DNA of 32,000 bases from Thermodesulfobacteriota bacterium. Lineage in GTDB: Bacteria; Desulfobacterota; WTBG01; JAGOGO01. Location: assembly GCA_026625185.1 (NCBI GenBank), contig CP113000.1:1635622-1667621 (forward strand). Reading direction: 5' to 3'. The notes beneath the pieces were generated by a model, which did no database searches, was not told the origin of the DNA, and worked only from the letters and a program-made list of their open reading frames with translations. The translations under genes were made by a program, and so were the position numbers. Position 1 is the stretch's first letter. Each line of letters begins with the position of its first letter. Shown here in pieces: positions 14,510 to 32,000 of this stretch.

Positions 14510-14532
14510 GGCGCTGATGAAGAGAAGCAGAA

Positions 14533-14577
14533 TTTATCCCGTATCTCGTATCCTGTATCTTATATCGAGCATCTCCT
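14533..14577. repeat. Right arm of the cassette: six tandem heptads phased on ATC (inverted relative to the left arm)
   Basis: The heptads ATCCCGT, ATCTCGT, ATCCTGT, ATCTTAT, ATCGAGC and ATCTCCT have ATC at 14536, 14543, 14550, 14557, 14564 and 14571, an exact 7-nt period. Confidence 0.8.
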
Positions 14578-14600
14578 ATTTTAACTTAATGTAATGTATT

Positions 14601-15478: not shown

Positions 15479-15506
15479 AAGAAGAATAACATTAATGAGG
15501 TTAGGT

Positions 15507-16460: not shown

Positions 16461-16461
16461 T

Positions 16462-17088: not shown

Positions 17089-17246
17089 CGATCAAACGAA
17101 CAACCGGCCCAGGGATGATTTTACGGAAACCAAAAACAATCTGGCTCGGAAGACCGATATATCGTGATCAGGTATAAGAAGTAGCGAACGGATTGCGGAT
17201 TGAAGAGATGTTCATAAAAAAGCGAGGTTAAGAGAGAAAATAATCA

Positions 17247-17480
17247 ATGACTTTTCGAAGAGGCTTTGCTGCAATTTCATTTTGGCTTGCGTTACCTTTT
17301 GGAATAGCCGGTGGTATTTTCATGGCAATTAAGGCAAGGAACCCCTTTGTGTTTATTCTGGGCTTTATGGTTGGTCTGGTCTTTATTATGGCGGTCTATG
17401 TTTTAATTGCCCTTATCCTGGCGCCCGCGGTTAAGATCTTTTGTGAAAAATTCAAAAGAAAAAAAGAACAAAACACTTAA
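17247..17480 (+). CDS. Hypothetical small two-TM membrane protein (77 aa)
   Basis: The ORF has two hydrophobic helices and a Lys-rich tail. I recognise no family, and the RBS is weak. Confidence 0.35.
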   Translation: MTFRRGFAAISFWLALPFGIAGGIFMAIKARNPFVFILGFMVGLVFIMAVYVLIALILAPAVKIFCEKFKRKKEQNT

Positions 17481-17676
17481 GGGATTTAATACGTCTGTGA
17501 ACCTTTTCCCCCCTATCCCTGTTATTTAAAGTTTTTGCGTAATATCGCACCTGTCCTTAAAATTCTACGAAATATCAAAGGTATTTTCCTGATACAACTT
17601 CCCTTCTGCCTATTATAATCATGATAACTATTTAATATTGAGGTGTTATTTTTGCACGATTAATTATCAAGGTTCA

Positions 17677-17692
17677 CGGCACAAAATTTGTA
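17677..17692 (+). promoter_or_regulatory. Weak sigma54 -24/-12 candidate upstream of the aor-eut-ech block
   Basis: CGGCACaaaatTTGTA has GGCAC and TTG at the correct 12-nt register, with three deviations from consensus. An alternative with the same register lies at 17641-17656 (AGGTGTtatttTTGCA). Confidence 0.25.
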
Positions 17693-17864
17693 TTGTCTTA
17701 TTAAACTGCGATTAATATGAGGGTTCTCTTTCAAATGTCATTCCTACATAAGCAGAAATCCAGAACCAAACGAAGTTAAGAGACTCCCACCTTCGAGGGT
17801 GTGAGAGAATGGAAATTGATTAGAGGTACCAATGAATTAATGAATGAAAGGAAATGGTGATATT

Positions 17865-19592
17865 ATGCCCGATAAAATTTATCGTATTAATATGACCGAT
17901 TTGAAGGTTACGAATGAAGAAGTACCGGAACAATGGAAAGGGCTGGGGGGCAGGGGTTTGACTTCCACAATTGTGGCTCAGGAAGTAAAGCCCACCTGTC
18001 ATCCTTTGGGAAAGTACAATAAGCTGATAATTGCACCGGGGTTGCTAACCGGAACAGCGGCGGTCAACTCTGGGAGGCTTTCGGCTGGTGCTAAAAGTCC
18101 GCTGACCGGGACAATCAAAGAAAGTAATGCTGGTGGAACTGCTGCCCAGTTTTTTGCCCGATTGGGCATTAAGGCACTTATTATTGAAGGTCTGCCCCAG
18201 AAAGACACCTTTTACAGCCTTCATGTGGATAAGAGCGGAGTTACGATTCAGGAAGACACGGAATTCGCAGGCAAAGGGAATTATGAAGTAATGCAAATGG
18301 TTCAAAAAAAGTACGGAGAAAAGATTGGTATACTATCCATCGGACCGGCAGGGGAAATGCGGATGGCCGCAGCCAATATTTCGGTGAAGGATCCTGATGG
18401 AACTATTCGCAGCCTGGGGCGGGGAGGACTGGGGGCGGTCATGGGTTCAAAAAAGATAAAGTTCATTACCATTGATGATACGGATGGCCCCGGTGTCCAG
18501 ATTGCTGATCCGGAAAAATTCAAAACCGCTTCCCGCACGTTTGCCAAGGGGGTTATTGCCCATCCGGTGAGCGGCGAATCACTCAAGCTTTACGGCACCG
18601 ATGTGCTGGTAAACATCTTAAACGAAGCCGGCGGCCTGCCAACGGAAAATTTCCGCTATGGTCAATTCCCTGGTCATGAAAAAATAAGCGGTGAAACGGT
18701 ATATGAGACGATCCTGAGCCGGAAAGGCAACCCAAGCCATATCTGCCATCGGGGATGTGTCATCAGATGTTCTCAGGTTTACAATGATAAAAATGGCAAT
18801 TATGTTACTTCGGGCTTTGAATATGAAACGATCTGGGGCTTTGGCGCCAACTGCAATATAGATGACCTGGATATCATCGCGGAAGCTGATCATGTTATGG
18901 ACGATGTCGGGGTTGACTCAATAGAAACCGGGGTGGCGATGGGCGTTGCCATGGAAGCCGGGATCATTCCCTTTGGCGACGGGGCCGGAGTTCTGAGGTT
19001 GTTGAAAGAAATCGGCACTGGTACTCCCCTGGGCAGAATTCTCGGCTCCGGGGCTGAAGGAGTCGGGAAAACATATGGTATCACCAGAGTACCGGTGGTG
19101 AAGGGCCAGGGGCTTTCCGCCTATGACCCGCGATCAATAAAAGGTATGGGCATTACCTATGCGACGTCAACCATGGGCAGTGATCATACCGCCGGTTACT
19201 GTGTTCCGGTAAACATCCTGAACGTTGGGGGTTTTGTTGATCCTCTGAAAAAGGAAGGGCAGGTAGAGCTCTCAAGAAGGCTGCAGATAGGTACTGCATT
19301 ATTGGATAGCACTGGTCTTTGTCTCTTCGTTGCCTTTTCTGTCTTAGACAATCTGGACTTATTTCAAGCTATGATGGACATGATAAATGCCAAATATGGT
19401 CTCAGCATGACGATCGATAATGGAAGAGCACTGGGTAGAAAAATCCTTCGCACCGAGCATGAATTCAATTTGGCTGCAGGGTTCACCAACAAGGATGACC
19501 GGCTCCCGGAATTTTTCGAGGAACCGGTGCCCCCGCACAATGCGGTGTGGGATTTCACTGACGAAGAGATTGATTCATTCTGGAATTTCTGA
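17865..19592 (+). CDS. aor: Aldehyde:ferredoxin oxidoreductase family (tungsto/molybdo-pterin, [4Fe-4S]) enzyme
   Basis: ~575 aa from MPDKIYRINM. It aligns by eye along its whole length with P. furiosus AOR: GGRGL, KLIIAPGLLTG, KSPLTG, SIGPAGE, GRGGLGAVMGSKKIK, a cysteine cluster ICHRGCVIRC, EYETIWGFGANC, DSTGLCLF. Confidence 0.9.
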   Translation: MPDKIYRINMTDLKVTNEEVPEQWKGLGGRGLTSTIVAQEVKPTCHPLGKYNKLIIAPGLLTGTAAVNSGRLSAGAKSPLTGTIKESNAGGTAAQFFARLGIKALIIEGLPQKDTFYSLHVDKSGVTIQEDTEFAGKGNYEVMQMVQKKYGEKIGILSIGPAGEMRMAAANISVKDPDGTIRSLGRGGLGAVMGSKKIKFITIDDTDGPGVQIADPEKFKTASRTFAKGVIAHPVSGESLKLYGTDVLVNILNEAGGLPTENFRYGQFPGHEKISGETVYETILSRKGNPSHICHRGCVIRCSQVYNDKNGNYVTSGFEYETIWGFGANCNIDDLDIIAEADHVMDDVGVDSIETGVAMGVAMEAGIIPFGDGAGVLRLLKEIGTGTPLGRILGSGAEGVGKTYGITRVPVVKGQGLSAYDPRSIKGMGITYATSTMGSDHTAGYCVPVNILNVGGFVDPLKKEGQVELSRRLQIGTALLDSTGLCLFVAFSVLDNLDLFQAMMDMINAKYGLSMTIDNGRALGRKILRTEHEFNLAAGFTNKDDRLPEFFEEPVPPHNAVWDFTDEEIDSFWNF

Positions 19593-19632
19593 GAAACGTT
19601 TTGGCAGTTCAATTTTCGGAAACAGGTTATTC

Positions 19633-19851
19633 ATGAAGGTTAAATTATTTGCAGCATTCCGTGACGGAAGATTTAAAGAAAAAGAGTGGGGCTATTTTGA
19701 CGGTATTACCGTGGGATCTATTCTGGAAGCGCTCAATATTAATAAGAAGGAAGCGGGGGTATTATTAGTTAACTCCCGCCATGCAGAAACAAATTATAGA
19801 CTGGGAAAAGGGGATACCCTTTCTCTTTTTCCGGTCATCGGGGGTGGATAG
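19633..19851 (+). CDS. MoaD/ThiS-family beta-grasp sulfur-carrier-like protein ending in Gly-Gly
   Basis: This 72-aa ORF is hidden inside track ORF 19420..19851: MKVKLFAAFRDGRFKEKEWGYFDGITVGSILEALNINKKEAGVLLVNSRHAETNYRLGKGDTLSLFPVIGGG. Its size and the LFPVIGGG terminus are typical of the family. Confidence 0.7.
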   Translation: MKVKLFAAFRDGRFKEKEWGYFDGITVGSILEALNINKKEAGVLLVNSRHAETNYRLGKGDTLSLFPVIGGG

Positions 19852-19928
19852 AAAGAAATTAGTTATCTGAAATAATAAAGTCTTAAGAATGAAGGTTCTT
19901 TAATAACTTTCAGCTCAACGAGGAAGCG

Positions 19929-22250
19929 ATGAAAAAAGGATTGTCAAAGATACTAATGCTTAGTGTTGTGTGTTTTGGGGTCTTCTACTTGTGCGCAAAC
20001 AGCTTTGCAATTACGATTAATGAGGTAAAACCAGGAGAAGATGTCTTCGCATATATCACCAGAGTCAAAAGGGGCTTTAATCAGACCCTTTATCAGCAGG
20101 TGATCGGTGCTTCCAATGCTTTCAAAGAAGGCGATGAAACTATTGGGGTGGCGGCCGATGATGAATCGACCCGGCAACATGCCCGGACGCTTTTGGCAAA
20201 CACGAAGATCAAAGACCTCTATGAGCACCCTCTCCTTGCCGACGACCTGCAGAAGCTGATCTGGCAAACCACCGATCAGGCCCAGTACAAGAAGGTTAAA
20301 GACTGGACCATGGGACAGCTGAAAGAATTTCTTTTAACCAAACCTGAGGCAGAGATCAAGGGCATCATGCATGGCTTGACCAGTGATGCGATTGGGTGTG
20401 TCCCCAAGCTGATGAGCAATGAAGAGTTAATCGCCATTGATCAAAAGATATTCAACCCCTTGCCGGGAACCAAGATGGGGGCAAAAGGGTACTTGAGTGC
20501 CCGCATACAGCCCAATTCGCCCACTGACAACCCCGATGATATTGTCTGGGAGGTGTTTGACGCGTTTTCCTATGCCACTGGCGATATCGTTATCGGAACC
20601 AACCCGGTGGACAGTCAGGTAGAGAGTGTAGCCACCGTGGAGAAAGCGCTCAAGGATGTGGTCGATACTTTCAAGCTTCAGGAGGTCGTTCCCTGGTGTG
20701 TGCTTTCCCATATCGATGTCCAGGCAGAGGTTAGTAAGAAGTATCCGGGAACGGTTGAGACCATGTTCCAGAGCCTCGCCGGAACAGATGATTGCAACAA
20801 GACCTTTGATGTCACGGTTGAGAAGATAATGAATTATGCAAAATCCAAGAAAGGAGAGAGATACGGGCTCTACTTTGAGACCGGTCAGGGCTCTGAATTT
20901 ACCAACGGCGCGGCCAAAGGGGCTGACATGATGGTGCTGGAATCCCGGAAGTACGGCTTTAGCCGGGCGGCACAGATGGAACTGGCTAAAGTCCAGCCTC
21001 AAGGGGCGTGGCTCCACGTCAATGATGTGGCCGGATTCATCGGGCCCGAGGTCTTCAGGACCCGCGAGCAACTTGTGAGATGCTGCCTGGAAGATATCGC
21101 CATGGGTAAACTCCACGGATTAACCATTGGTCTTGATATTTGTTCAACCCTGCACATGACCGTCAGCCTCGATGATCTCAATTGGTGCCAGGACCAGATC
21201 ATGCCGGCCAACCCTGCTTACTTGATGAGCCTGCCCACCAAGAATGACCCCATGTTGAGCTATCTGACCACGTCGTTTCAGGATCATGTCCGCCTGAGGG
21301 AAAAATTCGGCCTTAAAGTGAACGATCCCATGTGGGCTTTCTATAAGCTGATCGGGATTGTGGACAAGAACAACAAGTACACGAAGAATTTTGGCGATCC
21401 AATCTGGGTGTACTACCAGTACCGGCTGGCCAAGGGGGACAAGCGTTCCAAAGAAGCAATTTATGCTGAAGGAAAGAAGAAGATCAAGGAAGTTGAGGCG
21501 AGAGGCGTTGATCTGGCAATCGGTCACGGCAAGGATTTATGGGATCTCAATCCGCAACTGGCGGCCAAGGTAAAAACCTACTACGACGATGCCAAGATAT
21601 CCCTCTGGGCCGAGCTTACTCCTGCCTTTATCAAGACAATCCCCAATGCCCTGCAGGTCAGCACCCTGTCCAAGGATCGGGAGGACTATATCCTCCATCC
21701 GGCCAGCGGCGAGAAACTGAGCCCGGAATCCGTCTCTGCCCTTGAAAAGCTCAGGGACTCATGGGCAGGAATGGAGCCGAATGCGCAGATCGTGATTTCC
21801 GATGGCCTGAACGCCAAGGCCATTATGGATGATGGGCATCTTGCACCTTACCTGGAAGAAATCCGGATGCTGCTGACCAGTGCCGAAGCTGTTGGGAGCG
21901 GAAAGACCGCTATTGTGAGCGAAAAGAACATCGTCTTCACCAGCGGCAGGGTACGGGCCGGGTATGAGATCGGCTGCATGCTCTTTGGGAAATCAGATCC
22001 GAAAAAGCTGAAGGGGATTATTCACATCATCGGGGAGCGGCCGGGGACCATGCACCATTCCTATTCGGTGTATATCACCGTTGCCAAAGGAGAGGCATGG
22101 GCTCAAAAGAAGATTGATCACGATATTACGAAACTCGTATGCAACATAGCAGATACAGCCTTACCTCCGAAAGAAGCGGCCAAGGAGACCCTCACCATAA
22201 TAAGGGAAATGGTTGCGAAGCAGGCTCCTTCCAGCCGAAGCTCCCAGTGA
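19929..22250 (+). CDS. eutBC: Fused ethanolamine ammonia-lyase, EutB (heavy) plus EutC (light) in one 773-aa polypeptide, with a Sec-like N-terminal hydrophobic segment
   Basis: Residues ~45-505 align by eye with E. coli EutB (GVAADDES..AR..LANTKIKDL; GDIVIGTNPVD; LYFETGQGSEF; VNDVAGFIGPEV; LEDIAMGKLHGLTIGLD). Residues ~545-765 align with EutC (QIVISDGLNAKAI; GRVRAGYEIG; IIGERPGT; LVCNIADTALPPKEAA). The N-terminus is MKKGLSKILMLSVVCFGVFYLCANSFA. A GAGGAA SD precedes the start. Confidence 0.9.
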   Translation: MKKGLSKILMLSVVCFGVFYLCANSFAITINEVKPGEDVFAYITRVKRGFNQTLYQQVIGASNAFKEGDETIGVAADDESTRQHARTLLANTKIKDLYEHPLLADDLQKLIWQTTDQAQYKKVKDWTMGQLKEFLLTKPEAEIKGIMHGLTSDAIGCVPKLMSNEELIAIDQKIFNPLPGTKMGAKGYLSARIQPNSPTDNPDDIVWEVFDAFSYATGDIVIGTNPVDSQVESVATVEKALKDVVDTFKLQEVVPWCVLSHIDVQAEVSKKYPGTVETMFQSLAGTDDCNKTFDVTVEKIMNYAKSKKGERYGLYFETGQGSEFTNGAAKGADMMVLESRKYGFSRAAQMELAKVQPQGAWLHVNDVAGFIGPEVFRTREQLVRCCLEDIAMGKLHGLTIGLDICSTLHMTVSLDDLNWCQDQIMPANPAYLMSLPTKNDPMLSYLTTSFQDHVRLREKFGLKVNDPMWAFYKLIGIVDKNNKYTKNFGDPIWVYYQYRLAKGDKRSKEAIYAEGKKKIKEVEARGVDLAIGHGKDLWDLNPQLAAKVKTYYDDAKISLWAELTPAFIKTIPNALQVSTLSKDREDYILHPASGEKLSPESVSALEKLRDSWAGMEPNAQIVISDGLNAKAIMDDGHLAPYLEEIRMLLTSAEAVGSGKTAIVSEKNIVFTSGRVRAGYEIGCMLFGKSDPKKLKGIIHIIGERPGTMHHSYSVYITVAKGEAWAQKKIDHDITKLVCNIADTALPPKEAAKETLTIIREMVAKQAPSSRSSQ

Positions 22251-22366
22251 GGAGAGCATGTGTTATCGGGTTAAGAAAATGATAGTGATTCTCAATTAAG
22301 CTAAATTGCTTACTATGGACACTAAAAATAGGGATCGAATTATAGGTCAGGTGAGAGGATCTTAAA

Positions 22367-24262
22367 GTGAATGTTTTAATTTTTCTGATAGTGTTTCCGC
22401 TGGTTATCTCAGTGTTGGCGTTAGCACTCCCGCGTGGTCTTCTTATCAAAAGGATTATTGGGGTGATCGCCAATGTAGTTCTGTGTGCGGTACCAATCTA
22501 TCTTCTGGTCACGTATCTTGATAAGGGTCCTGCCTATTTCCACCTTGAGAGCCATCTGATCAATAATTCCATGCTTGTGGTGGAAATTCTCATCGCAGCC
22601 TATATAATTTATATTTCCATCCGGGCAAAAAGATACCTTCCCGTGCTGCTTGTTTTTCTACAATCAGTGATTATGCTTAGTTTCGAGTTTACCTCCGGTA
22701 GGGGGATGCAGATTGAGCACAGCCTGTTCGTGGATAAGTTCTCCATCATCATGGCTTTGATCGTGGGTTGTATCGGAAGCGCCATCTGTCTTTACGCAAT
22801 CGGATATATCCCGGAATATCACGAACACTACAAGGAGGTGAAAGCAAGGCCCAGGTATTTCTTTTTCCTCATGTACCTCTTCCTGTCCGCCATGTTTGGC
22901 ATCGTTTTCTCCAATAACCTCATGTGGATCTATTTCTTCTGGGAAATTACCACGCTCTGTTCATTTTTGCTGATCGGCTATAAAAACGACCAGGCATCCC
23001 AGGAGAGCGCATTCAGAGCACTCATCATGAATCTACTGGGAGGAGTTGTTTTCGCGGTCGGCCTTGTCTACCTGTACCATTCCTCCCAAGTCATGGAATT
23101 AAATAAATTGATTCAGCTCGATAAGGGCTACGTATTAATTCCGGCCGTGTGCATTGCCTTTGCCGGCCTGGTAAAATCAGCCCAATTCCCGTTTTCCTCC
23201 TGGCTGACGGGCGCCATGGTGGCACCGACACCAGTGTCAGCGTTGCTGCATTCGAGCACGATGGTAAAAGCGGGGGTCTATATCATCCTGAGAGTGGCCC
23301 CGGTGTTAGAGAACACTGTAGCAGCAAAAATGCTCATGCTCATCGGCGGGGTCAGTTTTCTGATTACCGCTTTCATTGCCATTTCTCAGAGCAATGCCAA
23401 AAAGGTGCTCGCCTACTCGACCATTTCCAACCTTGGGTTGATCGTCGCCTGTGCAGGAATTAATACCTATTCGGCAGTATGGGCAGCGATTCTGCTGATT
23501 ATTTTTCATGCGGTAGCAAAGTCGCTCCTCTTTCTCTGTGTGGGGATTATCGAGTACAAGCTTGGCAGCCGTGATATAGAGGATATGGACTATCTGATCA
23601 TGCGAATGCCCAAGCTCACCGCAATCATGATGACCGGCATGGCCGGGATGTTTCTTGCTCCTTTTGGCATGATCATAGGCAAGCTCGCCACGCTGAAAGC
23701 ATTTGTCGATTCCAATCCGGGGATGGCAATAATTTTAGCCTATGGAAGCGGGGCCACGGTCTTTTTCTGGATTAAATGGATGGGCAAAATTATTTCCATT
23801 AAACATGGCGTCTTTAAGGTCATGGAAGACCGGGTCAGCCGCTGGGAATGGATTACCCTGGGCATATTGGCCATTTCGACGGTGGCGGCATGCATTGGGT
23901 TTCCTCTCATCGCATTCCGCCTGGTGGACCCCTTTATCCTGGAGGTCTTTGGAAAAACCGTTATCGTTGATCCATTTAGTGTCTATATGATTCTCCTCAT
24001 GATGGTTGGCCTGTTAATCCTTCTTCCCCTTGGTCTTTTTTTCTTTGGATTCGTCAATAAAGGATATAAGAGGGTCGGAACCTATCTTGGCGGCGCCAAT
24101 ATTGACGATGTCACTTTTGAAGGGGCCATGGAATCTTCCCAGACAATTGAGCTCAAGAATTACTATCTGGAAAAATTCTTTGGAGAAAACGTTTTATTCA
24201 ATGCCGGGGTTTTTATTTCGTTAATATTGTTGGTCATCATGTTTGGAGTTGCAATCATATGA
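22367..24262 (+). CDS. echA: Ech hydrogenase subunit A (antiporter-like, NuoL/M/N-related membrane subunit)
   Basis: 631 aa, polytopic, with a GTG start and AGAGGA SD. It carries the antiporter-like pattern WEITTLCSFLLIGY, SAQFPFSSWL..AMVAPTPVSALLHSSTMVKAGVY. Confidence 0.85.
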   Translation: MNVLIFLIVFPLVISVLALALPRGLLIKRIIGVIANVVLCAVPIYLLVTYLDKGPAYFHLESHLINNSMLVVEILIAAYIIYISIRAKRYLPVLLVFLQSVIMLSFEFTSGRGMQIEHSLFVDKFSIIMALIVGCIGSAICLYAIGYIPEYHEHYKEVKARPRYFFFLMYLFLSAMFGIVFSNNLMWIYFFWEITTLCSFLLIGYKNDQASQESAFRALIMNLLGGVVFAVGLVYLYHSSQVMELNKLIQLDKGYVLIPAVCIAFAGLVKSAQFPFSSWLTGAMVAPTPVSALLHSSTMVKAGVYIILRVAPVLENTVAAKMLMLIGGVSFLITAFIAISQSNAKKVLAYSTISNLGLIVACAGINTYSAVWAAILLIIFHAVAKSLLFLCVGIIEYKLGSRDIEDMDYLIMRMPKLTAIMMTGMAGMFLAPFGMIIGKLATLKAFVDSNPGMAIILAYGSGATVFFWIKWMGKIISIKHGVFKVMEDRVSRWEWITLGILAISTVAACIGFPLIAFRLVDPFILEVFGKTVIVDPFSVYMILLMMVGLLILLPLGLFFFGFVNKGYKRVGTYLGGANIDDVTFEGAMESSQTIELKNYYLEKFFGENVLFNAGVFISLILLVIMFGVAII

Positions 24263-25140
24263 ACAGTATTTCTGAGATCATCCAATCCTGGAGTATCATT
24301 GAAAGGATGCTGGCCTTTTTCCTGCTTGCGCCCATTGCGGGTGGCGTACTGGCCGGTATTGACCGGAAATTGAGCGCACGGTTGCAGGGCAGATATGGCC
24401 CCCCGGTGAGGCAGCCTTTTTTTGATGTTCTAAAACTTTTCCAAAAAGAGCGGATCCTCGTTAACAAATTTCAGAACTTTCCGATAGTGCTCTTTTTTCT
24501 GTTTACGGTTTTTTCCGGCGCTCTTTTCTTTTCCGGTGCGAGTATCCTTTTGGCAATCTTCAGTTTAGCCCTGGCCGGAACTTTTTTTATCCTGGGTGGA
24601 TTTTCGGTCAGTTCCCCGTATAGCCACCTTGGCGCTGAGCGCGAATTGATTCAGATGATGTCATACGAACCCATGGTCATTCTTGTGGCGGTCGGCATGT
24701 ACCAGGTGACGGGAAGCTTTACGGTTGCGGACATTGTCCAACACCAGGCGTCGCTGATTCTTTACCTTCCCGGGGTGTTCGCGGGCTTTGTTTATATCCT
24801 CACCATTAAGTTCCGAAAATCTCCTTTTGACCTTTCCATGTCTCATCATGCGCACCAGGAACTGGTGAGGGGGATCACTACCGAATTTTCCGGTCCTGCC
24901 CTGGGCCTCATAGAGATTACTCATTGGTATGAAAATGTGCTTCTCTTGGGCATGGTATACCTCTTTTTTGCCTTTAATCCCTGGCTGGCCATCGTTGCGT
25001 CACTGGGAACGTATTTGTTTGAAATTATTATTGATATGAATTATGCCCGATTTAAGTGGCAGCTTACGTTCTGGAGTTCATGGTTGTTTACGGCTGTGGC
25101 CGGGGTTTCAAATATTATTGTGCTTTGTTTTTTGAAATGA
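24259..25140 (+). CDS. echB: Ech hydrogenase subunit B (NuoH-like membrane subunit)
   Basis: 293 aa. The start overlaps the echA stop (ATGA). It shows the NuoH/HycD-like pattern R.L.ARLQGRYGPP..QPF.D..KL..KE. Confidence 0.85.
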   Translation: MNSISEIIQSWSIIERMLAFFLLAPIAGGVLAGIDRKLSARLQGRYGPPVRQPFFDVLKLFQKERILVNKFQNFPIVLFFLFTVFSGALFFSGASILLAIFSLALAGTFFILGGFSVSSPYSHLGAERELIQMMSYEPMVILVAVGMYQVTGSFTVADIVQHQASLILYLPGVFAGFVYILTIKFRKSPFDLSMSHHAHQELVRGITTEFSGPALGLIEITHWYENVLLLGMVYLFFAFNPWLAIVASLGTYLFEIIIDMNYARFKWQLTFWSSWLFTAVAGVSNIIVLCFLK

Positions 25141-25158
25141 CTTGGGAGAACAAAAAAC

Positions 25159-25644
25159 ATGGGTTGGTTTAAAAAATCGCCGTGGCTTCTTCATTATAAC
25201 GCGACCAGCTGTAACGGGTGCGATATTGAGATTATTGCCTGCCTGACCCCTTTGTACGATCTGGAGCGGTTTGGTATTATCAACACCGGAAACCCAAAAC
25301 ACGCTGACATCCTGGCGGTCACCGGGTCGGTCAATGAGAAGAGCAAGCAGATTCTGAAAAATCTTTATGATCAAATGCCGAATCCCAAGGTAGTCGTGGC
25401 GGTAGGCCTTTGCGCCATTTCCGGATGCGTTTTTCAGGACTGCTACAATGTGCTGGGAGGAGCCGACAAGGTGTTGCCGGTAGATGTGTATGTTCCGGGA
25501 TGTTCTGCGCGGCCGGAATCGATTATCGACGGAGTACTTCAGGCGTGTGAGATTCTTGAAGAGAAATACGCCCAGCAGAAAAAAGCAAAGCAATCATCAC
25601 CAAAATCACAAACAAATCAACGGCAAGGTTTTAACCATGAGTGA
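25159..25644 (+). CDS. echC: Ech hydrogenase small subunit (NuoB-like, proximal [4Fe-4S])
   Basis: 161 aa. Cysteine ligands are in the canonical context: SCNGCDIE, GLCAISG, PGCSARPE. Confidence 0.9.
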   Translation: MGWFKKSPWLLHYNATSCNGCDIEIIACLTPLYDLERFGIINTGNPKHADILAVTGSVNEKSKQILKNLYDQMPNPKVVVAVGLCAISGCVFQDCYNVLGGADKVLPVDVYVPGCSARPESIIDGVLQACEILEEKYAQQKKAKQSSPKSQTNQRQGFNHE

Positions 25645-26083
25645 ACCGCAGGAAATCATTCTTATCGAAAAAAATAATTTACTGGGAATTGTGTCTGACC
25701 TCTTTGCAGAGGGCTACCGACTTGTGCAGATCGGCTGCACCACACTCCAGAGCGCCTATGAACTTAACTATTCTTTTGATAAAGAGTACCATTTTAAAAA
25801 TCTGCGGTTTACCGTGGCACCGGAAGAAGAGATCCAAAGCATCAGCGTTATCTATCCAAATGCCTTTCTGTATGAAAATGAAATTCATGACCTTTTTGGC
25901 CTTACCATCAAAAACATAACCATTGACTACCAGGGGAAGCTTTACCGAACTGCCCTTAAGGTTCCTTTTAGCATTGAGAATTGTCCGGTGCCCGAGCCCC
26001 CAAAACCAAAGAAAGAAACTCCTCCAGAACCGCCGGAAAGCCAAAAACAAAATTCGGCAGACACTAAACCGCAAGAGGATTAA
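25637..26083 (+). CDS. echD: Ech hydrogenase subunit D (NuoC/30-kDa-like) with a Pro/Lys-rich C-terminal tail
   Basis: 148 aa from MSEPQEIILIEKNN. The start overlaps the echC stop by 8 nt. It has the NuoC-like motif IYPNAFLYENEIHDLFGL. The track's longer ORF (from 25484) is an out-of-frame overlap with echC. Confidence 0.75.
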   Translation: MSEPQEIILIEKNNLLGIVSDLFAEGYRLVQIGCTTLQSAYELNYSFDKEYHFKNLRFTVAPEEEIQSISVIYPNAFLYENEIHDLFGLTIKNITIDYQGKLYRTALKVPFSIENCPVPEPPKPKKETPPEPPESQKQNSADTKPQED

Positions 26084-26097
26084 AGGAGTAAACGTCT

Positions 26098-27177
26098 ATG
26101 GCGCATAAGAATATCATCCCTTTTGGTCCCCAACATCCCGTACTTCCGGAACCGATCCATTTTGATCTCGTAACTGAAGATGAAAAGATTGTTGATGCTA
26201 TCCCTTCGATAAGTTACGTCCACCGCGGGCTGGAACGACTTGTAGAAAAAAGAGATTTTATTGATTTCGTGCATATTGCCGACCGGATTTGCGGCCTGTG
26301 CAGCTTTATGCACTGTATGGGATATTGCCAGGCAGTGGAAGAGGTTATGGGTATCCAGGTGCCGGAACGTGCTCTGTACCTCAGATCCATATGGGCGGAG
26401 CTGGCGCGGATACATAGTCATATCTTCTGGCTCGGTGTTTCTGCCGACGCTTTTGGTTATGAAAGCCTTTTTATGCAATCCTTGCGTCTCCGGGAATTGG
26501 TGCTTGATATCATTGAAGAAACCACCGGCGGAAGGGTCATCTTTGGCTCCTGCAAGGTGGGTGGGGTGAGGAGAGACATCGATAGCGAAACTTTAAAGGG
26601 GCTTGTTGCTAGGTTGACAAATATGAAAGCCGATTTGGATGAACTCACTTCCGTCTTTATTAATGATTATTCCATTCAGCACCGATTGGTGGGGGTAGGA
26701 TTTTTTTCCAAAGAAGATGCCTATACTCTTGGGTGTGTTGGCCCCATGGCCCGGGCGAGCGGTTTCGCTCTTGACATGCGAACTCTTGGGTATGCTGCCT
26801 ATAAGTTCCTGGAGATAGAACCGGTCGTGGAATACGGGGGAGACTGTTATGCCCGATGCCTCGTGCGAATTCGGGAAATTTTCCAATCCATGGATTTAAT
26901 CCGTCAGGCAGCCGGAAAAATTTCCGAAGGGCCTATTGATGTCAAGGTGAAGGGCACGCCGAATGGCGAGTATTTTTCCCGGGTCGAACAGCCTCGGGGT
27001 GAAGTGATTCATTACGTCAAAGGGAATGGTTCAAAATTTCTCCAGCGGTTCCGGGTGAGAGTCCCAACATTCACCAATATCCCAGGGATGATCAAAGTAT
27101 TGAAAGGTTCTCAGGTGGCTGATGTCCCGAATATTATTTTGACCTTGGATCCGTGTATCAGCTGCACAGAAAGGTAA
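26098..27177 (+). CDS. echE: Ech [NiFe] hydrogenase large subunit (NuoD-like)
   Basis: 359 aa with an AGGAG SD. Both Ni-Fe ligand pairs are present: N-terminal RICGLCSFMH and C-terminal DPCISCTER. The protein ends right after the second motif, as in Ech/Mbh-type enzymes. Confidence 0.9.
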   Translation: MAHKNIIPFGPQHPVLPEPIHFDLVTEDEKIVDAIPSISYVHRGLERLVEKRDFIDFVHIADRICGLCSFMHCMGYCQAVEEVMGIQVPERALYLRSIWAELARIHSHIFWLGVSADAFGYESLFMQSLRLRELVLDIIEETTGGRVIFGSCKVGGVRRDIDSETLKGLVARLTNMKADLDELTSVFINDYSIQHRLVGVGFFSKEDAYTLGCVGPMARASGFALDMRTLGYAAYKFLEIEPVVEYGGDCYARCLVRIREIFQSMDLIRQAAGKISEGPIDVKVKGTPNGEYFSRVEQPRGEVIHYVKGNGSKFLQRFRVRVPTFTNIPGMIKVLKGSQVADVPNIILTLDPCISCTER

Positions 27178-27189
27178 GGCAATAAGAAC

Positions 27190-27582
27190 ATGAGATCGTT
27201 TACTATGACAAAAACGGTGGTCAAGAACCTGGTCAAGGGACCCGCAACCCTCATGTACCCGAAAAAAAAGAGGTTTTTTACTAAGATTACCAGGGGAAGC
27301 GTAGAAATTGATATCCAGAAATGCATTTTCTGCGGGATATGCAGCAAACGGTGTCCAACCTACGCCATTGTTGTCACCAAAGTCACCAAAGAATGCAAAG
27401 AATGGGAGATCGACCGCCTCAAATGCTGCGCCTGCAATCTTTGTGTTGAAGTCTGTCCGAAAAAGTGTCTCTCGATGACCAACCAGTATACCCCGCCAGC
27501 AAGAGATAGAACGGCAGGGATCCATAAACAAATTTTCACCGGCCCTGAAATCCTTACGGGAAAGGAAGAGGAGCATTCCTAA
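27190..27582 (+). CDS. echF: Ech hydrogenase subunit F (NuoI-like 2x[4Fe-4S] ferredoxin-type subunit)
   Basis: 130 aa with two cluster motifs, CIFCGICSKRCP and CCACNLCVEVCP. The start could instead be the ATG at 27205. Confidence 0.85.
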   Translation: MRSFTMTKTVVKNLVKGPATLMYPKKKRFFTKITRGSVEIDIQKCIFCGICSKRCPTYAIVVTKVTKECKEWEIDRLKCCACNLCVEVCPKKCLSMTNQYTPPARDRTAGIHKQIFTGPEILTGKEEEHS

Positions 27583-27689
27583 CAGGGCCAGAATTAAAGA
27601 AATTATTTGCAAATCAATTAAATATATTTTAAAATTGCAAAATAAAACTGTTATCAAAAACTGGCTAAGAAGAAGCAAGGGGAAAAACA

Positions 27690-27884
27690 ATGGCAAAAAC
27701 GGTGGTTATCGATACGCCCGAATGCACGGCATGCGGAACCTGTGTGGAGATATGTCCGGAAGTTTTTGCACTTGAGGATGGAGCTGAGGCTGCGACCGTA
27801 ATCCAACCCACCGGCGGGCCGGAAGACTCTATCCAGGAGGCGATTGGTAGCTGCCCTACCTCGTGTATTCACTGGCAGGATTAG
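27690..27884 (+). CDS. Small single-cluster ferredoxin (64 aa)
   Basis: CTACGTCVEICP ... CPTSCI. Its size and Cys spacing resemble monocluster ferredoxins of Pyrococcus and Desulfovibrio. A GGGGAAAAACA stretch precedes the ATG. Confidence 0.85.
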   Translation: MAKTVVIDTPECTACGTCVEICPEVFALEDGAEAATVIQPTGGPEDSIQEAIGSCPTSCIHWQD

Positions 27885-27913
27885 TTCCCGGACTGTCTTT
27901 TTTTCTTAATAAT

Positions 27914-28072
27914 CTTACCTTCAATCTTGGGCGTGTGCTGGTTGTGTTTTTGTCTATCCTTATTACCGGCCAGGTTACCGGTGACGGAGAATCAAATTGG
28001 CTCAAAGGAGTGCAGCTCCTTGCGGTCTATGTGATTTTAGGTATTGTTTTCTTTTTTAGTGTCGGAGAATGA
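27914..28072 (+). pseudogene. C-terminal remnant of a CaCA-family Ca2+/H+ antiporter (cax/chaA-like), last ~50 codons only
   Basis: The translation ...LTFNLGRVLVVFLSILITGQVTGDGESNWLKGVQLLAVYVILGIVFFF matches the highly conserved last TM region of CAX/ChaA proteins (..DGESNWLEG.QLL..Y.I....FF). The ~300 upstream codons expected for such a protein are absent, because the ferredoxin gene ends at 27884. Confidence 0.5.
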
Positions 28073-28116
28073 TTAAAACAAACAATGAGGAAACCCATTT
28101 ATTTTGGTTATGACTC

Positions 28117-28800
28117 ATGAAATGGGCAGATAATTTTTTCGGATACTTCCGAAGAATCCGTTTTATTTTTCTCTTTTTCTTCCTGCTGCTTTGCATCGGC
28201 ATAATGCCTCTTTTGACCGAGTGGGGGTTCGGCTATGTATCAGAAATTTTACAGGTGATTCTTGCCCTCACCCTCATCGCCTCCTTGATCACCATTGTTA
28301 GGGAGCGTCTCTTGTCTGGTTTATTTGTCATTGTATTTGTGATGGCGGTTCTTAAGTTGTTGTATCTTTTGCTTCATTTCAATGTTTTCCTGCCTACGAG
28401 TCAAGGGCTCCAGGTATTTTTTTGTTTGATAGCGGTCGTCCTGATTTTACGGTTTATCATGCAGGTGAAAACGGTCGATAACGATGTTGTTTTTGCTGCG
28501 TTAAGCGTTTATCTTTTATTCGGTCTCATTTTTGGTTTCATTTATTTCATGGTAGAAGGACTGTCGCCCGGTTCTCTTGTCCACAACGTGACAAGCGCTT
28601 CTCTTGAAGGAGGTATCCGCTTAAGTCAAGCCGTTTATTTCAGTTTCGTTACCCTCGCGACATTAGGGTATGGTGATATAATACCAGCGAACGACATAAT
28701 AAGGTCCCTGGCAATCATACAAACAATGTGCGGTCAGGTTTATCTGGTGGTATTGGTTGCCCGTCTGGTAACCCTTTATGGAGGGTCTTATAAACGATAA
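28117..28800 (+). CDS. Potassium-channel family protein (pore loop TLGYGD), no RCK domain
   Basis: 227 aa with multiple TM helices. The selectivity filter reads FSFVTLATLGYGDIIP. Confidence 0.8.
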   Translation: MKWADNFFGYFRRIRFIFLFFFLLLCIGIMPLLTEWGFGYVSEILQVILALTLIASLITIVRERLLSGLFVIVFVMAVLKLLYLLLHFNVFLPTSQGLQVFFCLIAVVLILRFIMQVKTVDNDVVFAALSVYLLFGLIFGFIYFMVEGLSPGSLVHNVTSASLEGGIRLSQAVYFSFVTLATLGYGDIIPANDIIRSLAIIQTMCGQVYLVVLVARLVTLYGGSYKR

Positions 28801-28876
28801 AAAAATAAAGAGACCTTTTAAGAATCGCTCGTAATGAGTGATTAGGATAATCACCTATAGTTTTGAGGTTAACAAA

Positions 28877-30091
28877 ATGAAATCATTTCCCGTCACGCGT
28901 TCTTCTTTTTTGTTTGTATTCCTAATTATTTTTTATTTGGTGGGTTCTTTTTTTGCCGGCTGCAAAAAAAGCCCTCAGACCGGGTCTCCACCGCCAGACG
29001 TTGAAGTCGTTTCGGTTCAGCAAAAGGATGTTCCTATTTATACTGAGTGGGTTGGCACAATGGATGGATTGGTGAATGCCACCATCCGGGCCCAGGTTTC
29101 GGGTTATCTCATCAAACAGAACTACCAGGAAGGCGAATTGGTCAGAAAAGGGCAGGTGCTCTTTGAAATCGATCCGCGATCGTTCCAGGCGGCGTTGGCG
29201 CAGGCTCAAGGGGAACTCGCCCGGCAGGAGGCAGCTCATGAGAATGCGAGCCTCACTTTAGCGAGAGTAAAACCCCTTGCGGAGCAGAATGCGCTGAGCA
29301 AAAGAGACCTTGACAACGCAACGAGCACCGAACTGGCGACTCAGGCATCAGTTTTCGCTGCCAAGGCAGCAGTGCAAAAGGCGGAGTTGGATCTTGAATT
29401 CACGCGGATCACCTCCCCTATTGACGGCATCGCGGGGATTGCCAAAGCCCAGCTTGGCAACCTAGTGGGACCGGGAGCAAGCGAGGAATTGACCACCGTT
29501 TCCACCGTTGATCCTATCAAGGTTTACATTCAGTTGAGCGAACAACAGTATTTGAAAAGCAGACAAGCACTGGAGGCGCGCGAGGCGCAAGCCCGAGAGG
29601 TTCCTCTTCAACTAATTCTTGCGGACGGGAGTGTATACCCTCACCAGGGGCAATTCTCCCTGGCAGACCGTCAGGTGGATGTGACCACGGGAACGCTTAA
29701 GGTCGCCACCCTCTTCCCTAATCCGGGGAATCTCCTCCGTCCAGGCCAGTTTGGTCGGGTCTGCGCACAATTGGAAGTTAAGAAAGGTGCGCTGCTCGTG
29801 CCCCAGCGGGCTGTAACGGAAATGCAAGGAAAATATCTAGTCGCGGTCATAGAGAAGGACAATAAGGTCGATGTCAGGCCGGTGCAGGTCGCGGAGAAAA
29901 TAAGTTCGGACGTCATAATTTCCCAGGGGCTGAAATTCGGCGAGAAAGTTGTGGCTGAGGGAATACAGAAGGTAAAATCGGGACAAATGGTTATTCCCAA
30001 GCCTTTCGCTCCCGAGAAACCGACTGTCGCTTCGGGAGATTCCGGTAGGACGGAGGCGAAACCTTCCCCGGCTCCAATGAAAAAGAGGTAA
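28877..30091 (+). CDS. RND efflux periplasmic adaptor (membrane fusion) lipoprotein
   Basis: Starts at MKSFPVTRSS... with lipobox FFAGC. It shows the typical AcrA/MexA pattern: ..V.GYL....Y.EG..V.KGQVLFEIDPR.FQAAL..A...L, then LEFTRITSPIDG. The track's start at 28838 adds 13 unlikely residues. Confidence 0.85.
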   Translation: MKSFPVTRSSFLFVFLIIFYLVGSFFAGCKKSPQTGSPPPDVEVVSVQQKDVPIYTEWVGTMDGLVNATIRAQVSGYLIKQNYQEGELVRKGQVLFEIDPRSFQAALAQAQGELARQEAAHENASLTLARVKPLAEQNALSKRDLDNATSTELATQASVFAAKAAVQKAELDLEFTRITSPIDGIAGIAKAQLGNLVGPGASEELTTVSTVDPIKVYIQLSEQQYLKSRQALEAREAQAREVPLQLILADGSVYPHQGQFSLADRQVDVTTGTLKVATLFPNPGNLLRPGQFGRVCAQLEVKKGALLVPQRAVTEMQGKYLVAVIEKDNKVDVRPVQVAEKISSDVIISQGLKFGEKVVAEGIQKVKSGQMVIPKPFAPEKPTVASGDSGRTEAKPSPAPMKKR

Positions 30092-30097
30092 GGCACT

Positions 30098-32000
30098 ATG
30101 TCGAAGTTCTTCATCAACAGACCAATCGTGGCCATGGTCATTTCCATACTGATGGTCATCGTCGGCCTCGTCGCTGCTACGGGGCTCCCCATCGCTCAGT
30201 TCCCGAACATTGTTCCTCCGGCGATCCAAGTAAACGCTACTTACACCGGGGCTGACGCCCTTACTGTTGAGCAGTCGGTTGCCACGCCCATCGAGCAGCA
30301 GATGTCCGGGGTCGACAACCTGGACTACATGTACTCCATCAACACCAACAACGGGATGATGACCCTTTACAACTACTTCAACCTGAAAACCGAGGCCAAC
30401 ACCGACCAGATTCTCTCCCAGATGCGGCAGAATCAGGCACAGTCGCAGCTTCCCAAGGATGTCGTTGATTATGGGGTGACGGTGCAGAAATCCACCTCGT
30501 CGCCCCTCATCATGTTCGCCCTTTACTCCCCCAACGGGACCTACGATGCCGTCTTCCTCGCAAACTATTCCTACATCAACATCAACGACCAGATGACCCG
30601 GATCAAGGGGATCGCCAGCGTCACGGTATACGGTGTCGGCCAATACGCCATGCGGCTCTGGGTCAAGCCGGACCAGCTCGCCAAGTTAAACATCACTATT
30701 CCGGAGATCATGAACGCGGTCAAGGCCCAGAATACCGTCAACCCATCAGGCATGGTGGGCGCCGAGCCGGTACCGAAAGGCCAGGAGTTTACCTACTCCG
30801 TTCGGTCCCAGGGAAGACTCCAGACCGAGGAGCAGTTCGGTGACATCGTGCTCCGTGCTAATCCCGACGGCTCCATTGTCAGGGTCAGGGACGTGGCGCG
30901 CATCGCGCTGGGGTCCCAGACTTACAACGTGCAAAGTCGCTTCAACGGCAAGCCGTGCGCCCTCATCGCCCTCTTCCAGATGCCTGGAACCAACGCTCTG
31001 GATGCCGCCAACGGCACCAAAAAGCTGATGGAGGAGCTGAAGAAGAGCTTCCCGCCCGATCTAGACTATGAGGTAACGCTGGATACCACTTTGGCAGTTA
31101 CTGAAGGAATGCAGGAGATGAAAAAGACCTTTTTCGAGGCTCTCTTCCTCGTTGTTCTGGTCGTCTTCGTCTTCCTCCAGGGGTGGCGGGCGACCCTTAT
31201 TCCGCTCCTGGCAGTACCGGTCTCGTTGGTGGGGACCTTTGCGGTCTTTCCCCTCCTCGGCTTTTCGATCAATACGCTGTCCCTCTTCGGCCTTATCCTC
31301 GCTATTGGCCTGGTAGTGGACGATGCCATCGTCGTGGTTGAGGCCGTGGAGCACCACATTGAGCACGGCCTCTCGCCCAAGGATGCGGCACTCAAGGCCA
31401 TGGAGGAGGTCTCAGGCCCGGTCATCGCCATTGCCATTATTCTCGCGGCGGTCTTTGTCCCGACCGCCTTCATCCCCGGCATCACCGGCCAGCTTTACCA
31501 GCAGTTCGCGGTGACCATCGCTGTCTCGGTAATCCTCTCCGCTTTCAACGCCCTCTCCCTCTCCCCGGCGCTCTGCGCGCTGCTGCTGAAGCCCAAGAAG
31601 AAGGGTGCCGGTCCGCTCCAGAAGTTCTACGACTGGTTCAACCGGGTCTTCGGCCGGGCCACCGACGGCTACGTGGGAATCTGCGGCGTCGCCGTTCGGA
31701 AGAGTTTAATTAGCTTCCTCTTATTAGGGGGGGTCACGGTCCTGGCTGGGGTATCGGGCAAAGCCATCCCCACCAGCTTCCTCCCGGACGAGGACCAAGG
31801 GTTCATCTTTGCCGGCGTGCAGCTGCCCGACGCCGCCTCGCTCCAGCGGACCCGCGAGGTAGCCCGGCAGGCCGAAGAAATCATCATGAAGACCCCGGGC
31901 GTCAATTACTGCTCCTCGATTATCGGTTACAACATGCTCAGCCAGGTGCAGAACACTTATAGCGCTTTCTTCTTCATTTCCCTTGAGGAATGGTCCACTC
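30098..32000 (+). CDS. RND (AcrB/MexB-type) efflux permease; N-terminal ~634 aa present, continues beyond the window
   Basis: Missing from the ORF track because it has no in-window stop. My translation from the ATG at 30098 reads MSKFFINRPIVAMVISILMVIVGLVAATGLPIAQFPNIVPPAIQVNATYTGADALTVEQSVATPIEQQMSGVDN..., a textbook RND N-terminus. It lies 6 nt after the adaptor gene. Confidence 0.9.
   Translation, partial: MSKFFINRPIVAMVISILMVIVGLVAATGLPIAQFPNIVPPAIQVNATYTGADALTVEQSVATPIEQQMSGVDNLDYMYSINTNNGMMTLYNYFNLKTEANTDQILSQMRQNQAQSQLPKDVVDYGVTVQKSTSSPLIMFALYSPNGTYDAVFLANYSYININDQMTRIKGIASVTVYGVGQYAMRLWVKPDQLAKLNITIPEIMNAVKAQNTVNPSGMVGAEPVPKGQEFTYSVRSQGRLQTEEQFGDIVLRANPDGSIVRVRDVARIALGSQTYNVQSRFNGKPCALIALFQMPGTNALDAANGTKKLMEELKKSFPPDLDYEVTLDTTLAVTEGMQEMKKTFFEALFLVVLVVFVFLQGWRATLIPLLAVPVSLVGTFAVFPLLGFSINTLSLFGLILAIGLVVDDAIVVVEAVEHHIEHGLSPKDAALKAMEEVSGPVIAIAIILAAVFVPTAFIPGITGQLYQQFAVTIAVSVILSAFNALSLSPALCALLLKPKKKGAGPLQKFYDWFNRVFGRATDGYVGICGVAVRKSLISFLLLGGVTVLAGVSGKAIPTSFLPDEDQGFIFAGVQLPDAASLQRTREVARQAEEIIMKTPGVNYCSSIIGYNMLSQVQNTYSAFFFISLEEWST

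Follow-up and report, generated by a model that had tools for sequence, protein, structure and literature searches.

Genes for a fused ethanolamine ammonia-lyase with a predicted export signal lie beside aldehyde:ferredoxin oxidoreductase and Ech hydrogenase genes in a Thermodesulfobacteriota bacterium

Introduction

Ethanolamine utilisation is usually taught as requiring a bacterial microcompartment (BMC), for the containment of acetaldehyde, and an ATP-driven reactivase, by which the B12 enzyme is kept active. In this study, we analysed a 32,000-nt stretch of the genome of a Thermodesulfobacteriota bacterium (assembly GCA_026625185.1, contig CP113000.1, positions 1,635,622 to 1,667,621; hereafter the window), in which the gene for an ethanolamine ammonia-lyase (EAL) with fused EutB and EutC subunits is located between genes for an aldehyde:ferredoxin oxidoreductase (AOR) and a MoaD-like protein on one side and genes for an Ech hydrogenase and a ferredoxin on the other. 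The first-pass annotation of this DNA held that no ethanolamine system built in this way had been described. This was too strong, because the Pelobacter carbinolicus genome, as described in 2012, already has a fused eutBC in one cluster with aorA-2 and moaD-2, and no eutA (PMC3543383).

P. carbinolicus has two fused genes, eutBC1 and eutBC2 (Pcar_0491 and Pcar_0467), together with aorA-2 (Pcar_0456) and moaD-2 (Pcar_0455) (Aklujkar et al. 2012, PMC3543383). Strains of this species grow on ethanolamine with the fused eutBC and no eutA, and the acetaldehyde was predicted to be oxidised to acetate, supplying reduced ferredoxin (PMC3543383). The authors assumed that uptake occurs via neighbouring membrane proteins, and speculated that the two eutBC copies differ in substrate (PMC3543383). 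The window resembles that cluster in having a fused eutBC, an aor gene followed by moaD, co-directional genes and no eutA, and no microcompartment genes are mentioned for P. carbinolicus. There, one neighbour of eutBC encodes a periplasmic binding protein and another a conserved hypothetical protein; in three of the loci related to the window (L001, L002 and L018), these positions are taken by a binding protein and a TorF porin. The two clusters also differ. The P. carbinolicus cluster comprises 43 genes, including those for cobalamin synthesis. A molybdenum cofactor (Moco) riboswitch precedes aorA-2, whereas none was found in the window with Rfam. The paper makes no mention of Ech and assigns hydrogen to [FeFe]-hydrogenases, whereas the window has Ech. 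Compared by description, it names no signal peptide on EutBC, whereas the fusion in the window has a predicted one.

In Thermacetogenium phaeum, one AOR is formed exclusively during growth on ethanolamine (Keller et al. 2019, PMC6436200). Like the bacterium of the window, T. phaeum is an anaerobe with an AOR encoded within or near its eut cluster; unlike it, T. phaeum encodes EutB and EutC as two proteins, and its cluster also includes BMC shells, a transporter and an acetylating aldehyde dehydrogenase (PMC6436200). Its microcompartments have been seen by electron microscopy (PMC6436200). A literature search that covered few subscription journals gave nothing relevant to the combination of EAL, AOR and Ech beyond these two organisms. 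With these precedents, the AOR route is already known in outline. The new elements are the export signal and the coupling to Ech, neither of which we could find in print.

Neither fusion nor export of the lyase comes up in a 2018 review of ethanolamine utilisation. The canonical eut system of Salmonella, Escherichia coli and Enterococcus shares with the window identical substrate residues, the problem of acetaldehyde containment and, as far as can be predicted here, the adenosylcobalamin (AdoCbl)-dependent chemistry of EutB and EutC. It differs in that the subunits in the window are fused and carry a predicted export signal, and in that the aldehyde would be converted to acetate by a ferredoxin-dependent AOR rather than to acetyl-CoA.

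Ech is the group 4e [NiFe]-hydrogenase, of which those of Methanosarcina barkeri and Desulfovibrio gigas are examples. The Ech of the window shares with this group the gene order echABCDEF, the subunit sizes and families, both CxxC pairs and the two clusters of EchF; unlike the Ech of M. barkeri and D. gigas, it adjoins AOR-family genes. To our knowledge, there is no solved Ech structure for comparison. As for exported corrinoid enzymes, reductive dehalogenases carry a twin-arginine (Tat) signal. However, they use the corrinoid for redox chemistry and not for AdoCbl radical chemistry, and the signal of the lyase in the window is of the Sec type rather than the Tat type.

Results and discussion

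Gene content of the block

As the first-pass annotation had stated, ten genes on the + strand occupy positions 17865-27884, and Pfam and NCBIfam searches assigned them to the families that it had named. In order, they encode AOR, a MoaD/ThiS-fold protein, the fused EutB-EutC protein, EchA, EchB, EchC, EchD, EchE, EchF and a ferredoxin. The tight spacing that had been reported was matched as well: gaps of 40, 77 and 116 nt up to echA, then -4, 18, -8, 14 and 12 nt within the ech genes, and 107 nt before the ferredoxin gene. The usual eut parts were also absent, as claimed: among the remaining open reading frames (ORFs) of the window, Pfam found neither the canonical microcompartment genes near eutBC (the EutS, EutM, EutK, EutL and EutN shell proteins, EutA, EutE, EutD and EutH) nor EutG, Eat, EutR or EutVW, and neither EutT nor any eut regulator is encoded in the window. 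Canonical eut/BMC genes were likewise not found in the related loci that bear both AOR and Ech.

The fused ethanolamine ammonia-lyase

The fused protein (773 aa; 19929..22250, + strand) was recognised as EutB-EutC by both Pfam and NCBIfam. EutB corresponds to residues 39-503 and EutC to residues 536-766, approximately. The Pfam scores were 491.9 bits for EutB (cut-off 25; 2.1e-147) and 103.3 bits for EutC (cut-off 25.8; 1.7e-29). In NCBIfam, the EutB part reached 649 bits and passed the subfamily cut-off of 554, and the EutC part had 73 bits, under the equivalog cut-off of 230. The AlphaFold2 (AF2) model of the fusion (predicted TM score, 0.79) is composed of a TIM-barrel EutB docked to a Rossmann-like EutC, and both chains of E. 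coli EAL superpose on it in Foldseek (3abo_A, TM 0.85; 3abo_B/D, TM 0.68-0.73). The substrate-binding residues of E. coli EutB, R160, Q162, N193, E287 and D362, are all identical in the fusion and are invariant across 49 family members. Since these five residues are kept, conversion of ethanolamine to acetaldehyde is the likely chemistry, and the fused protein likely represents a genuine EAL clade with predicted activity on ethanolamine.

Across the aligned fold, however, the clade shares only about 30% identity with characterised EutB, and an 11-residue insertion is located near the active-site barrel. These features, the EutC score under the NCBIfam cut-off and the speculation of the P. carbinolicus authors on two substrates (PMC3543383) would suit an exported clade that acts on another vicinal amino alcohol, such as 1-amino-2-propanol, and yields an aldehyde other than acetaldehyde. 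The invariance of the five ethanolamine-binding residues and the EutB score above the NCBIfam cut-off argue the other way, and E. coli EAL itself takes 2-amino-1-propanol (PDB 5ysr), so that a small shift in substrate would leave the scheme proposed below unchanged. We consider a different substrate very improbable.

Long N-terminal extensions or low-complexity inserts, with lengths up to 1144 aa, distinguish some of the more distant fused relatives (P0122, P0126, P0128, P0134 and P0254; 33-51% identity). These relatives have no signal peptide and are of eukaryotic-looking origin.

A predicted export signal on the lyase

The first-pass annotation identified the lyase gene correctly but overlooked an N-terminal signal peptide. 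Reading by eye, we assigned the first 27 aa of the fusion, MKKGLSKILMLSVVCFGVFYLCANSFA (19929..20009, + strand), as this signal; it is followed by the cleavage point and then by ITINEVKPGEDVF. It has a positive n-region (MKKGLSK), a 15-residue hydrophobic core and a small-x-small site, SFA, with cleavage before the next residue, I. A strong Shine-Dalgarno sequence, GAGGAAG, ends 4 nt upstream of the ATG. The AF2 model shows residues 1-25 as a separate helix of low confidence that lies outside the fold. The n-region contains KK and no RR, so the copy in the window is Sec-type and not Tat-type.

We then surveyed the 120 closest cluster representatives (75-100% identity). An RRxFL twin-arginine motif was found in 83 of them and a Sec-like signal without RR in 23; the remaining ones included about nine gene calls clipped inside the hydrophobic core and three without a signal. 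Examples of the Tat motif among close homologues are MKRRDFLKLCAAG..., SRRKFLAMMGAAG... and CRRQFLGIMG.... Such motifs precede the mature domain in isolates or metagenome-assembled genomes (MAGs) of Bradyrhizobium, Sinorhizobium, Microvirga, Geobacteraceae, Syntrophobacteraceae, Aquiflexum and Planctomycetaceae, and the Tat-motif copies span four or more phyla. The copy of Aquiflexum (Bacteroidota) has a lipoprotein-like cysteine with the Tat motif. All signals stop directly ahead of a conserved mature start, xIxEVKPGEDVF. No signal peptide was found in the more distant fused relatives (30-49% identity) or in canonical EutB. Because the N-terminal signal is conserved, either as Tat or as Sec, the lyase is probably periplasmic, and on this sequence evidence export of the lyase clade appears highly probable. 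In a literature search covering few subscription journals, we found no statement that an EAL is exported to the periplasm or by the Tat pathway.

A periplasmic lyase would explain why the shell, the transporter (EutH/Eat) and the ATP-dependent EutA reactivase are absent. We tend, with some reserve, to the view that a large, multi-phylum clade of fused EutB-EutC proteins is a periplasmic AdoCbl radical enzyme (mostly Tat-exported, and Sec-exported in this sub-clade), which would be an alternative topology to the microcompartment, and that anaerobes capture its aldehyde by cytoplasmic AOR, ferredoxin and Ech.

The first-pass annotation had instead proposed an entirely cytoplasmic pathway, in which ethanolamine is taken up and cleaved by cytoplasmic EutBC, and AOR, ferredoxin and Ech follow, all encoded by a dedicated ten-gene operon. 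The gene content and the tight spacing fit this proposal, the linkage described below is conserved, and for P. carbinolicus, too, the authors took neighbouring membrane proteins to be the route of uptake (PMC3543383). Nevertheless, about 106 of the 120 closest homologues, from several phyla, have a Tat or Sec signal peptide, the window encodes no ethanolamine transporter, and the same Ech lineage is found without EutBC. A pathway confined to the cytoplasm is therefore distinctly unlikely. What stands of the earlier pathway is the identity of the genes, the absence of a microcompartment from the window and the conserved linkage; what does not is the fully cytoplasmic course and the dedicated Ech.

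Linkage of EutBC with AOR and other partners

To follow the linkage, 75 loci with relatives of the fusion, from genomes and metagenomes, were scored by tblastn with the proteins of the window. Collapsing near-identical copies left 38 informative loci, in which AOR was detected or at least 1.5 kb was available on both sides of EutBC; AOR was counted at 70% identity or more to that of the window. The conserved neighbourhood that the first-pass annotation had put forward for checking was found in part of this set: 16 of the 38 loci have AOR next to EutBC, with four different gene orders among them, and nine of the 38 have AOR together with Ech on either side. The order of the window, AOR-(MoaD)-EutBC-EchABCDEF-ferredoxin, is shared by L003, L073 and L075. 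The order EchABCDEF-binding protein-AOR-EutBC occurs in L002, L011, L017, L018 and L051, AOR-EutBC without Ech in L001, L026, L031, L035 and L061, and EutBC-AOR in L029 and L030. The sources include MAGs labelled Syntrophorhabdus, Thermodesulfobacteriota, delta proteobacterium and Thermodesulfovibrionales. AOR accompanies both Tat-type copies of the lyase (L001, L002 and L073) and Sec-type copies (the window, L003 and L075). A functional link between AOR and EutBC is, in our view, probable. The spacer between EutBC and EchA is conserved among close relatives only.

Other partners recur as well. In several loci without AOR, a gene for a cytoplasmic Zn-alcohol dehydrogenase, of a family confirmed by Pfam, lies just upstream of EutBC (L010, L027, L028, L043, L044 and L048), and a later tblastn tally added L016 and L019. 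Thus, with either a Zn-alcohol dehydrogenase or AOR beside the putatively exported lyase, a partner that handles acetaldehyde is a recurring theme. In L001, L002, L017 and L018, AOR-EutBC is accompanied by genes for a PotD/YdcS-like binding protein and a TorF-family porin. Both proteins have signal peptides, and the window lacks both genes. With their periplasmic binding protein and porin, these frequent neighbours fit a periplasmic first step.

The same two genes, the binding-protein gene without an adjacent ABC permease, also recur at L035; in L001 they occupy 8158-10144. In L073, which has a Tat-type relative of the lyase, a 161-aa ORF (2659-3144) lies between MoaD and EutBC, where the window has the 77-nt gap; this ORF has no Pfam or NCBIfam match.

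AOR, the MoaD-like protein and the ferredoxin

The AOR gene (575 aa; 17865..19592, + strand) matches Pfam AFOR_N (4.5e-64) and AFOR_C (1.4e-75). Its ORF opens at 17844, and the start was set at 17865 according to the starts of homologues. The best PDB matches are 9mqx (1.9e-90) and Pyrococcus furiosus AOR, 1aor (4.6e-83), and also 8c0z, with FOR, WOR5 and GAPOR behind. On these comparisons, the protein is a member of the AOR clade proper and is nearest to broad-range AORs. The cluster cysteines C294, C298, C302 and C486 are present, as are the Glu and His aligned with those of 1aor; the cysteine spacing is Cx3Cx3C, as opposed to Cx2Cx3C in P. furiosus AOR. The metal of the pterin cofactor is probably tungsten; the window encodes no tungstate transporter. 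AOR has no signal peptide, which places it in the cytoplasm.

The MoaD/ThiS-fold protein (72 aa, ending ...VIGGG; 19633..19851, + strand) matches Pfam ThiS (1.5e-08) and NCBIfam moaD_arch (1.4e-06), and by analogy it is likely a sulfur carrier or maturation partner for the pterin cofactor of AOR. The AOR-MoaD pair recurs in L003, L018, L056 and L073; in L079-81, MoaD is directly upstream of Ech without AOR.

The last gene of the block encodes a single-cluster ferredoxin (64 aa; 27690..27884, + strand; Pfam Fer4_13, 8.9e-16), which we propose as the carrier of electrons from AOR to Ech. The same ferredoxin gene is 3' of EchF in L073 and L075 and within the ech genes in L003, and a related ferredoxin gene follows EutBC in L001, L027 and L028.

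The Ech hydrogenase and its lineage

All six Ech genes lie on the + strand. EchA (631 aa, GTG start; 22367..24262; Pfam Proton_antipo_M, 9.7e-59) is an NuoL/Mrp-type antiporter-like membrane subunit and is syntenic in L002, L003, L073 and L075. It is followed by EchB (293 aa; 24259..25140; Pfam NADHdh, 9.2e-41), an NuoH-like membrane subunit, and by EchC (161 aa; 25159..25644; Pfam Oxidored_q6, 3e-31), the NuoB-like small subunit, with Cys 18, 21, 85 and 115 for the proximal [4Fe-4S] cluster. EchD (148 aa; 25637..26083) is NuoC-like, with a Pfam Complex1_30kDa match (1.4e-07) and a gene call in the same frame by the Joint Genome Institute (JGI); an alternative frame for it, 25641-25919, had no Pfam match and was dropped. 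EchE (359 aa; 26098..27177; Pfam Complex1_49kDa and NiFeSe_Hases) is the [NiFe] large subunit and has both CxxC nickel-iron ligand pairs, in RICGLC (residue 63) and DPCISC (residue 351). In the PDB, it is matched best by MBH (6cfw_L) and FHL (7z0s_E), and JGI labels close homologues 'ech hydrogenase subunit E'. EchF (130 aa; 27190..27582; Pfam Fer4 families) is the NuoI-like subunit with two [4Fe-4S] clusters, in two CxxCxxCxxxCP motifs. Thus, homologues of NuoL, H, B, C, D and I are all present, two of them as membrane subunits and four as hydrophilic ones; this six-gene set, the motifs and the JGI names of homologues point to the Ech type (group 4e).

Homologues of EchE at 79-83% identity occur without EutBC in three settings (L076-L081). 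In one of them (L078), the gene directly before Ech is another member of the AOR family, with 26% identity to the AOR of the window. This supports an AOR-family enzyme, ferredoxin and Ech as a working pair, and suggests that AOR-family enzymes habitually donate electrons to this Ech lineage. The settings without EutBC and AOR imply that Ech, the Mla genes and an RND pump are the backbone of the lineage, whereas AOR, MoaD and EutBC form a variable cassette just upstream of Ech. The claim of a dedicated ten-gene ethanolamine module thus gives way to that of a cassette beside an Ech that is resident in the lineage.

The proposed pathway and its weighing

From these results, the following pathway may be drawn. 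The AOR-MoaD-EutBC cassette lies directly upstream of the resident Ech and ferredoxin genes of the lineage. The fusion would be exported (by Sec here, by Tat in most relatives) to the periplasm, or would be tethered on the outer face of the inner membrane, one signal peptide exporting both subunits in equal amounts. There, with AdoCbl, it would convert ethanolamine to acetaldehyde and ammonium. Ethanolamine would be reachable in the periplasm without a transporter; periplasmic breakdown of glycerophosphoethanolamine is a possible source. Uncharged acetaldehyde would diffuse into the cytoplasm, and ammonium/ammonia would cross unaided or via an Amt channel. AOR, its cofactor matured with the MoaD-like protein, would oxidise acetaldehyde to acetate and reduce the 64-aa ferredoxin, which Ech would re-oxidise with formation of H2 and movement of ions across the membrane. 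The potentials are about -580 mV for acetaldehyde/acetate and -414 mV for H+/H2, giving about -32 kJ/mol for H2 formation, which is enough for ion translocation by Ech. Cleavage outside the cytoplasm would take over the roles of the microcompartment, of EutH/Eat as the transporter and of EutA as the ATP-dependent reactivase. The gene identities, the conservation of the catalytic residues, the signal peptide with its conservation and the recurring linkage are read directly from the sequences. In this pathway, we infer the export, the loading with cofactor, the direction of electron flow, the co-transcription and the conservation of energy. We hold the complete chain, from the exported lyase to cytoplasmic AOR, ferredoxin and Ech, to be marginally favoured, and place a little more confidence in Ech as the electron sink.

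Several points weigh against this pathway. AOR is absent from more than half of the informative EutBC loci, and Ech from three quarters. In L025, whose DNA is 94% identical, positions 17467-19718 of the window, which include all of AOR, its upstream region and the 5' part of MoaD, are cleanly deleted (junction, L025:798-841), and EutBC-EchA-EchB is retained intact, so that this locus is a natural AOR-minus variant. L076 and L077 have the arrangement PK-Ech-MlaEFD-...-RND with neither AOR nor EutBC, and in L079-81 Ech is downstream of CobA (cobalamin adenosyltransferase) and ThiS, again with neither gene. An Ech with neither gene, or with MoaD only, means that part of the synteny reflects a shared backbone and not selection. 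We know of no precedent for an AdoCbl radical enzyme that acts in the periplasm. The periplasm has no ATP for reactivation, and acetaldehyde formed outside the cytoplasm can escape. Because the twin arginines are lost in the copy of the window, cofactor would have to be loaded after Sec export. Lastly, neither a riboswitch nor a convincing promoter ties the genes of the block together in the window.

Part of these observations would also be expected if the genes were mere neighbours, mainly by descent in a variable region: EutBC would act independently in the periplasm, for example to obtain ammonium from the ethanolamine of envelope lipids, and AOR with Ech would be a general aldehyde/acid redox module of these syntroph-like bacteria. 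In many AOR-free loci, EutBC has no such partner and is surrounded by genes of the envelope (OmpA, OprD, RND pumps, channels and Na+/H+ exchangers); AOR is deleted in L025; Ech is found by itself, beside a second AOR-family gene or with no more than MoaD; and RND and channel genes follow EutBC and Ech irrespective of AOR. However, AOR stays immediately beside EutBC through four gene orders, and it does so in two phyla or more (in MAGs of the Thermodesulfobacteriota type and in one of Thermodesulfovibrionales); the Zn-alcohol dehydrogenase, a different acetaldehyde enzyme, occupies the same position in other lineages; and the conserved active site necessarily yields acetaldehyde. Mere juxtaposition is therefore rather unlikely.

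If the pathway through an exported lyase is true, the periplasmic clade would be a second, much simpler solution than the microcompartment, and its lyase would be, as far as we could find, the first periplasmic AdoCbl-dependent enzyme. This would raise the questions of how AdoCbl is supplied and replaced outside the cytoplasm, why some lineages switched from Tat to Sec, and how much acetaldehyde is lost. The clade is present in cultured, tractable bacteria (Bradyrhizobium, Sinorhizobium, Microvirga and Aquiflexum), so its localisation can be tested directly. Formation of acetate, NH4+ and H2 from ethanolamine via AOR and Ech would make the head groups of membrane lipids a source of hydrogen for syntrophic partners. 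It would also explain why, in the loci examined, eutBC occurs without other eut genes in many Thermodesulfobacteriota and Thermodesulfovibrionales MAGs from sediments and wetlands.

Regulation

In the whole window, Rfam gave nothing at the gathering thresholds; at E<=5, positions 17050-22450 had three chance-level matches only, with no Moco or cobalamin riboswitch among them. Terminator-like sites in 17000-28900 are at chance level (16, against 13.8 expected). Sigma-70 promoter-like matches in the block number 29, against 17.3 in shuffles, and none is conserved or distinctive. An uncertain, weak sigma-54-like site, CGGCACAAAATTTGTA (17677..17692, + strand), lies 188 nt upstream of AOR. It was rejected as a promoter, since it departs from TGGCAC-N5-TTGCW at two positions and the other loci do not share it; the window has 14 such sites, below the mean of shuffles. 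Co-transcription of the block is plausible from its layout.

A PAS-PAS sigma-54 enhancer-binding protein is encoded at 10709..12628 (+ strand; Pfam Sigma54_activat, 2e-69, and PAS domains). It possibly regulates the block, from which it is 5 kb upstream, with Mla genes between it and AOR. Homologues of this activator (46-55% identity) are encoded directly before AOR-EutBC in L035 and L047 and before EutBC in L032. In L035 (about 5430) and L047 (about 7770), a good sigma-54 promoter, TGGCACATATTTAGCA, and the activator are located upstream of AOR. In these two loci, a truncated remnant of a binding-protein gene lies between the promoter and activator and AOR-EutBC.

Other features of the window

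The remaining scanned ORFs of the window encode Pqi- and Mla-type lipid transport, the sigma-54 activator, a CitMHS transporter, a K+ channel and an RND pump. Downstream of Ech, the backbone of the lineage (28117..32000, + strand; Pfam and NCBIfam, with tblastn for the pump) comprises a K+-channel-like gene (28117-28800), an RND adaptor gene (28838-30091) and an RND pump gene running from 30098 to beyond the end of the window. These channel-like and RND genes are probably not part of the pathway. They are also found after Ech in L073, L075 and L078 and after EutBC in L024, with or without AOR.

Two MCE-type lipid-transport systems are encoded upstream of the block. The first (5226-9569, - strand) consists of PqiA, PqiB with three MlaD domains, a PqiC-like lipoprotein and a DUF3313 protein, and the second (12875-17088, + strand) of MlaE, MlaF, MlaD and an auxiliary lipoprotein. 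Between MlaE and MlaF of the latter sits a gene (14096-14509) for a 23S-rRNA-intervening-sequence protein, a four-helix bundle. GC content is 40-50% (locally up to about 54%) over positions 9000-30000, which hold the activator, the Mla genes, the AOR-EutBC-Ech block and the channel. Values of 55-60% prevail in the RND pump region and over most of the first 9 kb, where two bins of 1 kb drop to 49%.

The sequence of the window is also contained in a JGI metagenome contig (sample 3300015266). The JGI annotation calls, instead of the ferredoxin gene, a 69-aa ORF at 27863-28072. This ORF is the C-terminal remnant of a gene of the Na+/Ca2+-exchanger family, about 0.9 kb of which is deleted in the window and which is intact in the relative L073 (11187-12242).

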